Shown: positions 38,141 to 57,785 of the stretch, piece after piece
How the letters are laid out: each line of letters opens with the position of its first letter
Position numbering within the stretch: position 1 is the stretch's first letter
From: Escherichia phage PECP20
DNA length: 64,000 nt
Sequence record: OQ873415.1
Strand: one strand, 5' to 3'
Made by a program: the position numbers and the translations under genes
The notes under the pieces: generated by a model
Told to the model about the DNA's origin: nothing
Seen by the model: the letters and a program-made list of their open reading frames with translations, nothing else
Database searches by the model: none

Positions 38141-38611
38141 TTAATCATGTTTCCACACCCCATCGGTATTTGACCAAAGTCGCTGATTATCTGATCCTCG
38201 CCACAGCTTTTTGGTCGGAAGATTTTTCTCATACTTCCCATCAATAATAACATCAACATATTTAAGCATTTCTAGCTGTTTAATATCTTCAAACTTATAT
38301 CCTGTCCACAACCAAATGCTTTTATTGGGATAAAGATTTTTAATAGTTTGAACTACAGAGTGAATAACATCTCGGTTATCAGGATAGAGAGGGTCTCCTC
38401 CGGTTATAGTCAATCCTTCTATATAATCATTATTCAAACATTCAATTAATTGTTCTAGTGTTTCACCAGTGAATGGAATACCATTTCTAGCATTCCATGT
38501 TGATTTATTATAACACCCTTCGCATTTATGCAAACAACCTGTAACGAAAAGAACGACCCTGCAACCAGGGCCATTAACAAAATCGCAAGGATAAAATCTA
38601 TCATAATTCAT
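38141..38611 (-). CDS. nrdG: anaerobic ribonucleotide reductase activating protein (radical SAM)
   Basis: 156 aa; CLHKCEGC radical SAM motif; directly downstream of nrdD. Confidence 0.9.
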   Translation of the reverse strand: MNYDRFYPCDFVNGPGCRVVLFVTGCLHKCEGCYNKSTWNARNGIPFTGETLEQLIECLNNDYIEGLTITGGDPLYPDNRDVIHSVVQTIKNLYPNKSIWLWTGYKFEDIKQLEMLKYVDVIIDGKYEKNLPTKKLWRGSDNQRLWSNTDGVWKHD

Positions 38612-40425
38612 TGGTGTTTAACCCTATGCATGATTTCTTTATTTTTACCGAGATTAAATCCGCGTTCGTTCGGATTTCCCAAATAACCGCATGTCCTTCT
38701 TATAGTGTTCATCTTTTTAGGATCAGTTTCTCCACAAACTGAACAAACAAATCCGTTTTCAGTAGGAGTCATTTCATGAGTACTTCCACACGTAAAACAT
38801 TTATCTACTGGCATATTAACACCAAAATAATCTAAATGTTGTGCAGCATAATCCCACACGGCCTCAAGACCTTTTAGGTTATTTTTCATATCAGGAAGTT
38901 CAACATAAGAAATGTGACCACCTGTCGCAATGAAATGATATGGCGCTTCACGAGAAATCTTTTCAAACGGAGTAATATTTTCTTCTACTGAAACGTGGAA
39001 ACTATTAGTGTACCAGCCTTTATCGGTAACATCTTTTACGCTTCCATATTTTTCTGTATCAAGTTTACAGAAACGATAACACAAGTTTTCAGCAGGAGTA
39101 GAATATAAACTAAAAGCAAATCCAGTTCTTTCGGTCCACTGTTTAAGATGAGCATTCATTTTAGTTAAAATTTCTTGCCCAATATCACGACCGACAAGAA
39201 TATTCAATTCGTGAATACCAATGTATCCCAAAGACACTGAACTTCTACCGTTTTTAAATAACTCAATTATATCGTCGTCAGGTTTAAGACGAACCCCAAA
39301 TGCACCTTCTTGGTAAAGAATAGGAGCAACAGTCGCTTTAACTCCTTTTAAGGAACTAATTCTACACATCAAGGCTTCAAAGCACAGATCCATTCGTTCA
39401 TTAAATAACTCAACAAATTTCTGTTCATTGAACTGTGTTCCAATATAAGAATCTAACGCGATGCGAGGAAGATTCAGTGTTACAACACCGAGATTATTAC
39501 GTCCATCAAGAATTTCATTACCAGTCGAATCTTTCCATACACTCAAGAAACTACGGCAACCCATTGGAGAAACTGGAACTGAAGAACCAGTAATAGCTTT
39601 ATTATTCTTAACCGAAATAATGTCAGGATACATTCTTTTGCTTGCACATTCTAACGCAAGTTGTTTAATATCATAGTTCGGATCATCTTTATAAAGATTA
39701 ACACCTTCTTCAACAAACATAACAAGTTTAGGAAAAATAGGAGTTATTCCATCACGACCAAGACCTTTAATCCGATTTTTCAGAATTGCTTTCTGAATCA
39801 TTCGTTCGGTCCAATCAGTTCCAGTACCAAATGTAATTGTTACAAAAGGCGTTTGCCCGTTTGAACTAAAAAGAGTATTTACCTCATACTCATAAGCTTG
39901 AAATGCGTCATATACATCTTTTTCTGTTTTAGATTGAGCATAATTCAGAATGTCTGGTATTTGCCATTTTTCTGCATCTTCAACATGTTTAGCGTATGTA
40001 CGTTTAACATAAGGAGAAAGAACTTTATCGACATTCGCAAATGTAGTTCCGCCGTACTGATGTGAAGCAACTTGTGCAGTAATTTGTGCCATAATTGCAG
40101 TAGCAACACCAATCGATTTAGGCGTTTCAATTTGAGCATTGCCCAATTTAAATCCGTTCTCAAGCATCCCCTTTAAATCGACTAAACAGCAATTGGTAAA
40201 CGGAAGAGCAGGAGAATAATCAATATCATGCATGTGGATAATTCCACTTTCATGCGCATTCATAATAAAAGACGGGACCATATTTTTGGCAATGTGCTTA
40301 GACACAATACCAGCCATAAGGTCCCGTTGAGTTGGAAAAACACGAGAATCTTTATTAGCATTCTCGTTCAAAAGATCTTTATTAGTTTTATAAATTAATC
40401 CTTCAATTTCTTTTTCAATTTTCAT
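38608..40425 (-). CDS. nrdD: anaerobic ribonucleoside-triphosphate reductase (glycyl radical enzyme)
   Basis: 605 aa; C-terminal glycyl radical motif RRTCGYLG and Zn-ribbon cysteines. Confidence 0.95.
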   Translation of the reverse strand: MKIEKEIEGLIYKTNKDLLNENANKDSRVFPTQRDLMAGIVSKHIAKNMVPSFIMNAHESGIIHMHDIDYSPALPFTNCCLVDLKGMLENGFKLGNAQIETPKSIGVATAIMAQITAQVASHQYGGTTFANVDKVLSPYVKRTYAKHVEDAEKWQIPDILNYAQSKTEKDVYDAFQAYEYEVNTLFSSNGQTPFVTITFGTGTDWTERMIQKAILKNRIKGLGRDGITPIFPKLVMFVEEGVNLYKDDPNYDIKQLALECASKRMYPDIISVKNNKAITGSSVPVSPMGCRSFLSVWKDSTGNEILDGRNNLGVVTLNLPRIALDSYIGTQFNEQKFVELFNERMDLCFEALMCRISSLKGVKATVAPILYQEGAFGVRLKPDDDIIELFKNGRSSVSLGYIGIHELNILVGRDIGQEILTKMNAHLKQWTERTGFAFSLYSTPAENLCYRFCKLDTEKYGSVKDVTDKGWYTNSFHVSVEENITPFEKISREAPYHFIATGGHISYVELPDMKNNLKGLEAVWDYAAQHLDYFGVNMPVDKCFTCGSTHEMTPTENGFVCSVCGETDPKKMNTIRRTCGYLGNPNERGFNLGKNKEIMHRVKHQ

Positions 40426-54812: not shown

Positions 54813-55111
54813 TACTCTTTGAAAGGAATTAACTTTTTAACTGCTTTAGATACTTCGTCACGAACCTGATGGAAGTTCTTGAGCTGTTCAAGGCGTTGTT
54901 CGTAATACGCAATCTCATCTTCTTCAAGACAATCGTCAGCGTCTTCTTTCAGATATGCCTTGTACTCATTAAAGAGGGCCCATAGGCGGTTCTCAAAGTC
55001 ATCAAGGCTTTGAATTTTCTTGTGCTTCGGAACAAGGCCAAAAGGATTGCTTTCAGTTATGCGTCTAGATGCTTCATAATGAGTTCCAAAGCCTGATAGG
55101 ATTTGAGCCAT
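54812..55111 (-). CDS. hypothetical protein (99 aa)
   Basis: ORF. Confidence 0.55.
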
Positions 55112-55377
55112 TAGTATTTTTCCTCAGGTCGAAATACTGCACGACAGGCCCACATGCTGGCTTCTTTTAGATGTTGCTTAGCATACTTAAGAGCCTGTAC
55201 TGCATCCATATCTTCTTTGGTTTGTTGCTCTGTTTCATTTTCTTTCAAGATATATGCTTCTTCAATCAGAGCATCAAACAACAATCCAAGACGGACTTCT
55301 GCATCTTTAATAGCGTTCACTTTACCGATTTTATCGTCGGTATGTGGCTTGTAGCCTTTAATATCTTCAATCGACAT
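55111..55377 (-). CDS. hypothetical protein (88 aa)
   Basis: ATG at 55377 (MSIEDIKG) forms ATGA overlap with upstream stop; track ORF extends to 55545. Confidence 0.5.
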
Positions 55378-55591
55378 AAGGAATTTCCTCATCGGTGGCA
55401 AGGTCATATTCGACCAATTGGATAGGCTCATTAATACCATATCCACGTACAGTGATATCAGTTGCCGGATAGTTTCCAGTAATATCACCCATTCTAAATG
55501 CTTCAATGAATGATTGCTCGCCTGAGCAACTAAACCAGGCGGCAAAACATTTTAAAACATCTTCAGACCCTTCTATAATCAATTTAGCCAT
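55367..55591 (-). CDS. hypothetical acidic protein (74 aa)
   Basis: ORF. Confidence 0.5.
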   Translation of the reverse strand: MAKLIIEGSEDVLKCFAAWFSCSGEQSFIEAFRMGDITGNYPATDITVRGYGINEPIQLVEYDLATDEEIPYVD

Positions 55592-55953
55592 TATAGACTC
55601 TCAGTAAAGGTACGAGCGATAACGTCACGCTGCTGTTCCGGAGTCAGAGAGTTAAAGCGAACTGCATAACCGGATACACGGATGGTCAGCTGCGGATATT
55701 TTTCCGGATGCTTAACTGCATCTTCCAGAGTTTCACGACGCAGAACATTAACGTTCAGGTGTTGACCACCTTCAATTTTAACTTTAGGTTGATGTTCAAT
55801 TTCAATTTCGCGGGCATGTAAACCGTAGAAAATTTCCGGGTCTACAATAGCGTCTTCTTTAAAAGTCTTAGAGACAATAATCCGGGCTTGAGTACCGTCT
55901 TCAAAATAAATAGTGCCTTTGTGTGTGCCTTCAAGAATTTGATATGCTTTCAT
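55591..55953 (-). CDS. autonomous glycyl radical cofactor (GrcA/YfiD-like)
   Basis: 120 aa; C-terminal ~60 aa ([60 protein letters not shown]) match E. coli GrcA as recalled, including the RVSGY glycyl radical loop. Confidence 0.9.
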
Positions 55954-55959
55954 ATAACC

Positions 55960-56268
55960 TCAATTAGAAAATAAATTTATCCAAGTTTTTTCTTTAATCA
56001 AAAATGGGTCGGAATTAAACGCCATTAAACTTTGAGTGATTAATCCCTTAAATGGCCCATCAATAAATTCCATTTTGAAATGCGGAATACTAGTCATCAA
56101 CCGTGCATTAGGAGCAGTACAAAGAACCTGCTGCCCTGCGAACGGACCTTTAGTCAAACGGTATCGTTTAGGTTTAAAATGGTAAATCTCGTAATTTTCT
56201 ACAAGAGCCCTTTTATTGCATACTGGGCTGTTATAACAATACTCAAAAACTTCAATAGTGGTCATCAT
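55960..56268 (-). CDS. hypothetical protein (102 aa)
   Basis: ORF. Confidence 0.55.
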   Translation of the reverse strand: MMTTIEVFEYCYNSPVCNKRALVENYEIYHFKPKRYRLTKGPFAGQQVLCTAPNARLMTSIPHFKMEFIDGPFKGLITQSLMAFNSDPFLIKEKTWINLFSN

Positions 56269-56976: not shown

Positions 56977-57306
56977 TTATACTCTAGGCTTTTGAGCTTG
57001 TTTGGTATTGGATTCCCATGTGGCTTTGGTAATTTTGTTAGCGGCATAACCAAAGGCATTAGATAGAACACCTTTAGAGTTGAATACATCCAATCCAATA
57101 AGTACACCGGCTGTGTTAAATTTAGGAGCAAAGTACGCATTAGTTTTAGAAAGAGCTTTTTTCAATTCAGGGTCTTGAACCAAGTCATCAAAAACGCCTT
57201 TACTATTTACTTTATATGTTACTTTGGGATTTTTACTTTCTTCGATAGCAGCTTTCTGTTCCGCAGATAATGTAACTTCAGTGATAAACTCTTGATATGT
57301 TTTCAT
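56977..57306 (-). CDS. capsid internal protein with capsid targeting sequence
   Basis: ATG at 57306 gives N-terminus MKTYQEFITE, the T4 internal-protein targeting consensus; Lys/Ala-rich body. Confidence 0.7.
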   Translation of the reverse strand: MKTYQEFITEVTLSAEQKAAIEESKNPKVTYKVNSKGVFDDLVQDPELKKALSKTNAYFAPKFNTAGVLIGLDVFNSKGVLSNAFGYAANKITKATWESNTKQAQKPRV

Positions 57307-57313
57307 TTTTTCC

Positions 57314-57727
57314 TTAGTAAATTGATTTACCATAGTATTTGTACCAAGTCGGACGTTGAGCAATTTTTTCATCTAAGCGTGCTTGACTTATCGCAATGGA
57401 CACTTCGGACGGGACATAATTATTACGAAATTCGGCAGGAATGTCGGAAATATCCTGGACTGTCGTGTCCTTGATTTTGAAACCACGTTTCAAACATTCA
57501 GCGATTAGCTCGATTTGTCGTAAACGTAAAAATTCAAGTTTGTCGTAAAAGAATGTTACGTGACCTGTGCCTAAGATAAATGTTGGAGAGATTTTAAAAT
57601 CCTTTACACGTTTACCGTTTTGAACATGTTTACGGACTGCACCAAATACGCGTGGTAATTCACGATACTCAGCCATAAGATGTTGGTCGGACAGTTCAGA
57701 AACAAGTGTTAAATTGATACGAGTCAT
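57314..57727 (-). CDS. denV: endonuclease V (pyrimidine dimer DNA glycosylase)
   Basis: Near-identical to T4 DenV as recalled ([12 protein letters not shown]...); start at ATG 57727. Confidence 0.95.
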
Positions 57728-57785
57728 AATTTCCTCCAAGTAGTTGATGAATGTATAGTATCAAAACCCTTGGAGGAAGTAAACA

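Follow-up and report, generated by a model that had tools for sequence, protein, structure and literature searches.

The window, by which we mean the whole analysed stretch of 64,000 nt from Escherichia phage PECP20 (OQ873415.1), carries on its minus strand an ATG..TAA open reading frame (55591..55953) that encodes a protein of 120 amino acids followed by the stop codon. A Shine-Dalgarno-like GAGG was read off the sequence 4 nt upstream of the ATG (55958..55961, minus strand) and presumably serves as a ribosome binding site. At the other end, the stop codon overlaps in a TAATG motif with the ATG of a downstream vs.5-like reading frame that starts at 55591 (55367..55591). The gene order in the window is as in T4: denV, vs.8-like, vs.7-like, vs.6, vs.5-like, regB. 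Both its full-length similarity and its conserved place in the denV-regB early-gene cluster mark the gene as orthologous to T4 vs.6 (Y06I), which specifies an autonomous glycyl radical cofactor of the GrcA/YfiD type. The T4 protein likewise has 120 amino acids, and its gene has a vs.7-like gene on one side and a vs.5-like gene on the other, with denV and regB close by; identity to the window gene is ca. 93% at the nucleotide level and ca. 95% at the amino acid level. An annotated gene of Shigella phage SHSML-52-1 (Mosigvirus) is still closer, with 99.4% nucleotide identity and the same neighboring genes. The RefSeq name of T4 vs.6 is 'autonomous glycyl radical cofactor GrcA', and the window protein matched phrog_1209 over its full length (residues 1–120, E = 5e-63).

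The protein has the architecture of GrcA/YfiD, a family of small (ca. 14 kDa), stand-alone proteins in which the C-terminal ca. 65 residues form a glycyl radical domain of the pyruvate formate-lyase (PFL) type that includes the RVSGY loop. The Pfam Gly_radical domain covers residues 60–101 of the 120 (E = 2e-18). Among solved structures, E. coli YfiD/GrcA (PDB 6OWR, E = 2e-42) matched best and the C-terminal part of pyruvate formate-lyase came next. Residues 21–120 align to YfiD 27–127 and residues 57–120 to PflB 696–759. The RVSGY loop was computed to lie at 55666..55680 (minus strand). The codon of Gly95, which corresponds to GrcA Gly102 and PflB Gly734, is at 55669..55671 on the same strand. 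As in E. coli GrcA, an N-terminal half of ca. 60 amino acids precedes the PFL-like domain, but in the phage protein this half is 7 amino acids shorter and only 35% identical. The NCBIfam equivalog model for GrcA (TIGR04365 spare_glycyl; InterPro IPR011140) returned 158.6 bits, just short of the cutoff of 170, a deficit due to the divergence of the N-terminal half. The genomic setting also differs, with grcA adjoining ung in E. coli and the phage gene lying within the early-gene cluster.

Elsewhere in this cluster, a 131-amino acid reading frame on the minus strand (56977..57372; phrog_3966, function unknown) is flanked by denV (57314..57739) and the vs.8-like gene. It is without a T4 counterpart and appears as a gap of ca. 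350 nt in the T4 alignment. Identity between window and T4 drops to 40–55% at ca. 56130..56260, in the 5′ part of the vs.7-like gene, and at ca. 55000..55290, inside genes that are otherwise 70–90% identical. These segments look like small hypervariable or replaced stretches of the early-gene cluster.

A host-like tract in a phage gene

Comparison with E. coli grcA divided the gene into two parts, which we refer to as head and tail. The head, i.e. the phage-lineage 5′ half (gene nt 1–177, amino acids 1–59; 55777..55953, minus strand), has low identity to grcA and a phage-like composition. It is followed by a host-derived tract (gene nt 179–353, amino acids 60–118; 55601..55775, minus strand) that is nearly identical to E. 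coli grcA nt 200–374 and encodes the structured glycyl radical domain. The last codons are again phage-specific, reading GAG AGT CTA TAA (55591..55600, minus strand) where E. coli has GAA AGC CTG TAA. A maximum chi-square scan placed the breakpoint at gene nt 178 (window ca. 55775/6; permutation p < 0.0005), with an identity to E. coli grcA of 0.50 to its left and 0.97 to its right.

The sequence-only reading of this DNA had proposed that the C-terminal ca. 60 residues are identical to E. coli GrcA/YfiD, RVSGY loop included, that the N-terminal half is diverged, and that the host gene had recently been captured or had recombined with the phage copy. The first two points are exact: residues 61–120 (EGGQHLNV...RVSGYAVRF...TFTESL) equal E. 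coli GrcA 68–127 at 60/60 positions, and the N-terminal 60 residues share 35% identity with the host protein over 40 aligned positions, the 5′ half being ca. 50% identical at the nucleotide level. Protein identity was ruled out as proof of recent capture. The same 60-residue tail is invariant in Citrobacter, Mangrovibacter, Huaxiibacter and other enterobacterial genera, and it also occurs in RB16-type and Cronobacter-phage copies of which the DNA is only 82–84% like that of any host. Since the tail is invariant across hosts and in phages with diverged DNA, its protein sequence alone is uninformative on recency.

The nucleotide alignment proposed in the sequence-only reading is informative and supports a recent exchange, showing a sharp junction and not the uniform, moderate identity of old homologs. 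Counted from the Ile/Val codon that precedes EGGQH, the final 186 nt (stop included) differ from E. coli grcA at five sites; all are synonymous and three of the five fall in the final 10 nt. In gene nt 181–353, 171 of 173 nt are those of E. coli grcA (98.8%), compared to 97.7% identity to another Escherichia sp., 91% to Citrobacter and 87% to K. pneumoniae; among 79 other species identity was at most 91%. At the 22 sites that separate E. coli from K. pneumoniae the window tract has the E. coli state in all cases. The T4 tract is 99.4% identical to E. coli grcA, and in two IMG/VR phages 175 of 175 nt agree. The synonymous divergence (dS) of the tail from E. coli is 0.12 for the window gene and 0.05 for T4, whereas for the same codons the hosts differ from one another by 0.36 (E. 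coli and Citrobacter) to ca. 1.0 (E. coli and Salmonella). By these measures the tract nests inside Escherichia. The genes pflB and tdcE were ruled out as donor, with 77–83% identity versus 97–99% for grcA.

Composition changes at the same position. The head has a GC content of 0.37, equal to the window average, with a phage-like GC3 of 0.27, and the tract has a GC content of 0.49. The comparison of codon usage between the halves, also suggested beforehand, showed a switch at the junction to host-like usage, CTG serving for five of the six Leu codons in the tail compared to 10% in the genes of the phage.

All 5,426 complete E. coli genomes searched matched the window tract at 95–99%, and none was identical to it. 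With the whole 64-kb window as query, the only megablast match in these genomes was the grcA tract, with a weaker hit to the paralog pflB; no other host-like DNA was found in the window at megablast level against this set. The window gene is thus a host-phage mosaic: it has a supported breakpoint, a host-like segment that nests in the clade of its own host with synonymous sites included, and, as described below, an independent counterpart in another phage-host pair.

Distribution among phages and hosts

The feature is not special to phage PECP20, being present in T4 itself and in ca. 640 T4/Mosigvirus-type genomes. Searches of the phage database gave 638 records with a match of ≥95% to E. coli grcA, in each case beginning at grcA nt ca. 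200, and 106 records that matched K. pneumoniae grcA at ≥95%, starting at nt 202. A Salmonella-type tract was absent from the phage database, where the best identity to Salmonella grcA was 80–90%.

The matches to K. pneumoniae were examined in Jiaodavirus. Klebsiella phage KPV15 has an orthologous head and a tail that is 96.6% identical to K. pneumoniae grcA over 176 nt, versus 87% to E. coli. In five Jiaodaviruses, nt 181–338 were 93–99.4% identical to K. pneumoniae grcA, the next-best host reaching at most ca. 90–94%. When the 22 diagnostic sites were scored in these detailed host comparisons, which used one E. coli and one K. pneumoniae sequence, E. coli phages had 20–22 E. coli states and Jiaodaviruses 14–18 Klebsiella states. 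Compared to the E. coli phages, Jiaodavirus has its 3′ junction ca. 15 nt more to the upstream side, and therefore the E. coli and Klebsiella events are separate; the two conversions are independent. The vs.6 homologs of KPV15 (L084:301-662) and CPRSA (L086:255-619), both from Klebsiella phages, are frameshifted and annotated as two short reading frames, representing either pseudogenes or sequencing errors. The homologs in other Jiaodaviruses are intact and encode 120 amino acids.

Conversion does not simply follow the isolation host. The E. coli tract persists in T4-type phages for which Citrobacter, Yersinia or Serratia was the isolation host, and RB16/RB43-type as well as RB49-type coliphages are unconverted. 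Together with the lack of a Salmonella tract in the database this shows that conversion is episodic and not automatic. Tracking of the host sequence was not seen in Karamvirus, Pseudotevenvirus, Slopekvirus, Krischvirus and T5-like phages when their tails were compared with 83 host alleles (≤85% identity) from hosts other than Cronobacter, Aeromonas and Vibrio. The grcA-like genes of Karamvirus, Pseudotevenvirus, Slopekvirus, Krischvirus and Tequintavirus share the architecture of vs.6 and mostly have MKAYQ-like N-termini, but their tails are 72–85% identical to the sampled hosts and lack signs of recent conversion.

Some of these tails have features of their own. In Pseudotevenvirus and Slopekvirus (L102–L108, L085, L087) the tails have a host-like GC content of 0.48–0.49 at only 82–85% nucleotide identity to sampled hosts. 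Their variants are of host type, with LEDAVKH in phages of E. coli, Cronobacter and Citrobacter and LLDAVEH in Klebsiella phages. Such tails may go back to earlier replacements by host sequence and have diverged afterwards. The T5-like phages (L133–L159, Tequintavirus and relatives) have a GrcA-like gene of 122 amino acids that also begins with MKAYQ; its tail is 72–75% identical to hosts, which points to an old acquisition.

Several database records need care. A group of 'viral' contigs, namely a 19-kb IMG/VR contig (L119) and L160–L169, contains a complete Yersinia-like host grcA with 91% tail identity or full host pflB genes; these contigs are probably host DNA or prophage flanks and not phage copies. 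A 5.37-Mb K. pneumoniae 'plasmid' in PLSDB (CP125156.1, L171) is evidently a chromosome. The grcA gene of K. aerogenes NCTC10006 is frameshifted in its record (LR134122.1, L172), and an assembly labeled 'Vagococcus sp.' (L033) carries an enterobacterial grcA, which suggests contamination.

Age of the tract in E. coli phages

T4 vs.6 shares both the 5′ junction and the E. coli-like tract of the window gene; inside the tract it has a private R73H change. In the local alignment of window and T4 the tract is the most conserved stretch, with 97–100% identity versus 65–90% around it, and a dS of 0.12 between the two tails compares to 0.49 between the two heads. The comparison was extended to nine sequences only, four Mosigvirus-type and five T4-type copies. 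Between the two types the head (177 nt) had 12 fixed differences and the tract (176 nt) had none (Fisher p = 4e-4). Polymorphic sites among the same nine copies were similar in number, 14 in the head and 12 in the tract. The differences from E. coli within the tract were private singletons in the nine copies, and there were none in the two IMG/VR phages.

The 3′ end varies. Mosigvirus copies, including the window gene, have CTA, versus TTG (T4) or CTG in the T4-type, and the pattern is mosaic among Tequatroviruses, in which all four combinations of AGC/AGT with CTG/TTG occur. In phages Shfl2 and OES_C-2 the gene is E. coli-like right to the stop codon. The gene of Escherichia phage OES_C-2 (L177:229-585) also has a 6-nt in-frame deletion in the head, changing EIEIE to EIE, and a single difference from E. 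coli in the 185 nt to the stop codon. From this distribution of differences it seems that Mosigvirus and Tequatrovirus separated before the tract was acquired, and that there were several conversions of which the 3′ end points varied.

A doubtful but still credible alternative is that the E. coli sequence entered once, in a common ancestor or followed by spread from phage to phage, and was then inherited vertically in Tequatrovirus and Mosigvirus, the Klebsiella event being separate. The 5′ junction is identical in all E. coli phages, GAG is present at the 3′ end of every E. coli-type copy examined except T4, the T4-type phages from other genera retain the E. coli tract, and the search of E. 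coli genomes gave no sequence identical to the window tract, all as a single event would have it. A common junction is, however, expected anyway because host homology starts there. A single ancestral conversion also has difficulty with the lack of fixed differences between the genera in a tract that is as polymorphic as the head, and with the mosaic 3′ ends. Transfer between phages is hard to square with the fixed head differences, which persist to ca. 10–25 nt from the junction. We therefore favor repeated conversion in the E. coli phages. A broader version, in which the glycyl radical tract would be re-copied time and again from the grcA allele of whichever enterobacterium a T-even lineage inhabits, is to us an even bet.

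Origin of the two halves

The head has its own history. Its nucleotide identity is 89% to T4 and 71–75% to the heads of Jiaodavirus (71%) and Karamvirus, and the same head family is common, more distantly, to Pseudotevenvirus and Slopekvirus. Between window and T4, dN/dS of the head is 0.04/0.49, or ca. 0.08, indicating strong constraint. Karamvirus (CC31-like) combines a head of this family with its own low-GC tails, which are 75–82% identical and have several amino acid differences; such tails look like the unconverted state. Judged by these comparisons, the 5′ half is conserved phage-lineage sequence under constraint and not decayed host sequence.

The sequence-only reading had left open whether capture or recombination was involved, and recombination fits the sequences better than capture of a whole gene, since other T-even genera share the 5′ half, an old homolog that belongs to the phage lineage. 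A single recent capture of the complete host grcA followed by very fast divergence of its 5′ half is in our view very improbable. It draws on the weak homology of the 5′ half to the N-terminal half of GrcA, 35% over 40 amino acids, and on the disorder of that half in YfiD, which could allow it to evolve quickly. The head, however, is saturated at the nucleotide level directly beside a 99%-identical tail, belongs to a family that in Jiaodavirus, Karamvirus, Pseudotevenvirus and Slopekvirus is joined to different tails, and combines phage GC with strong constraint. The observed phylogeny of the head agrees with the phage genera, and its age by far exceeds that of the tract.

Still less credible is the reverse simplification, in which the gene is an old homolog throughout and extreme purifying selection on the glycyl radical domain maintained the tail with no recent exchange. 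Invariance of the 60 residues across many genera and in the RB16/Cronobacter-type phages, where the DNA is 82–84% identical, would agree with such selection on the protein. The nucleotide alignment refutes this reading. Selection of this kind does not account for synonymous sites that are near-identical to E. coli specifically (dS 0.05–0.12, compared to 0.36–1.0 between hosts), nor for the sharp breakpoint at nt 178 or the host-like codon usage of the tract.

The direction of transfer is from host to phage, because host grcA is without a discontinuity between head and tail, the two diverging in step across genera, and because the tract has host composition. The opposite direction, or an assembly or contamination artefact, has no specific support and can practically be dismissed, given this host composition and, for an artefact, the presence of an in-frame, phage-flanked tract in hundreds of phages that were sequenced independently, the T4 reference among them.

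The account we prefer is that vs.6 is an old phage homolog of grcA in which a tract of ca. 175 nt was overwritten through recombination with host grcA, at least twice in the direction of the phage, and that the encoded protein has a spare-part role; we estimate its probability at ca. 85%. In the window the overwritten segment is 55601..55775, which would have been replaced by chromosomal E. coli grcA through homologous recombination (gene conversion) during infection. The 5′ end point is the start of phage-host homology (GAAGGTGG, EGGQH motif) and the 3′ end point lies ca. 10 nt before the stop codon; both coincide with the limits of that homology. Replacement occurred at least two times, with E. 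coli as donor to Tequatrovirus and Mosigvirus and K. pneumoniae as donor to Jiaodavirus, and was probably repeated within the E. coli phages. The sequences show the mosaic, its direction and its independence in two phage-host pairs; from their pattern we infer the recombination mechanism and the number of events within E. coli phages.

Predicted function of the vs.6 protein

T4 was correctly described in the sequence-only reading as encoding a YfiD-like spare part for oxygen-damaged PFL. T4 Y06I and E. coli YfiD are the two biochemically validated spare parts in the work of Wagner et al. (2001), as far as it is cited in PMC8683613; according to the same citation, both acquire a glycyl radical from the PFL-activating enzyme and rescue oxygen-cleaved PFL. 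Residues 61–127 of YfiD fold like PFL 693–759 and carry the radical, and residues 1–60 are disordered and promote binding to cleaved PFL as well as activation by PFL-AE (PMC8683613). The converted tract corresponds to GrcA residues 67–125 and is inside the structured domain, and the phage-specific half corresponds to the disordered recognition region. All that Nolan et al. (2006) note on vs.6 is that it is conserved and has a Gly_radical domain (PMC1524935).

By analogy to YfiD/GrcA and T4 Y06I, the host PFL-activating enzyme (PflA) would install a glycyl radical on Gly95 of the window protein. The C-terminal domain could then replace the glycyl radical domain that host PFL loses through oxygen cleavage at Gly734, which would restore the production of acetyl-CoA and formate in microaerobic infection. 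The likely benefit is that PFL is kept working during such infection, a physiological role in PECP20 that we deduce from the characterized homologs.

The window also harbors a second glycyl radical system, in agreement with what had been noted from the sequence. The anaerobic ribonucleotide reductase gene nrdD (38608..40425, minus strand) encodes Pfam NRDD (E = 2.5e-171) and Gly_radical domains, and nrdG (38141..38611, minus strand), for its activase, encodes Fer4_12 and Radical_SAM domains; the two genes span 38141..40425. Formate is a product of PFL and the reductant for class III ribonucleotide reductase, and a functional link of vs.6 to NrdD/NrdG via formate is plausible. In Aeromonas phage ZPAH1 a grcA-like gene (L088:228-614) is located directly between nrdG and a thioredoxin gene, an order that may be a sign that the PFL spare part is functionally tied to the anaerobic reduction of nucleotides.

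Discussion

Earlier work has established the gene, the family it belongs to and what it does biochemically, so that the annotation as such adds nothing, and the mosaic is also present in T4; the useful part is the evolutionary pattern. In the literature searched, neither the host tract at the nucleotide level nor its specificity for the host was described, and an earlier remark may be present in Wagner 2001, Miller 2003 or Bowman 2019.

The sharp bounds of the tract, its near-perfect identity to the host, the lack of divergence between genera and the Klebsiella counterpart point to host-to-phage gene conversion of one domain. T-even phages are usually described as having almost no nucleotide similarity to their hosts. 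A precedent is intragenic recombination between host and phage in the cyanophage genes psbA and psbD, reportedly described by Sullivan and colleagues in 2006 (PMC1484495). Both cases concern a host-derived metabolic gene in a T4-like lytic phage of which segments were exchanged with the host gene. As differences we list for vs.6 that the tract is ca. 175 nt long, 99–100% identical to the host, bounded by the limits of homology and restricted to one domain, and that it recurs with another host species in a sister phage genus. For annotators the case holds a warning, as identity to a host protein in the GrcA family is no evidence of recency.

The converted domain is the one that must fit host PflB and PflA. 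If the tract is indeed copied repeatedly from the resident host, this would amount to concerted evolution between a host and a strictly lytic phage that degrades host DNA, brought about by phage recombination on ca. 175 bp of homology. The vs.6 gene would then be a natural recorder of the host history of a phage lineage and a tractable system for measuring gene conversion from the host to T4.
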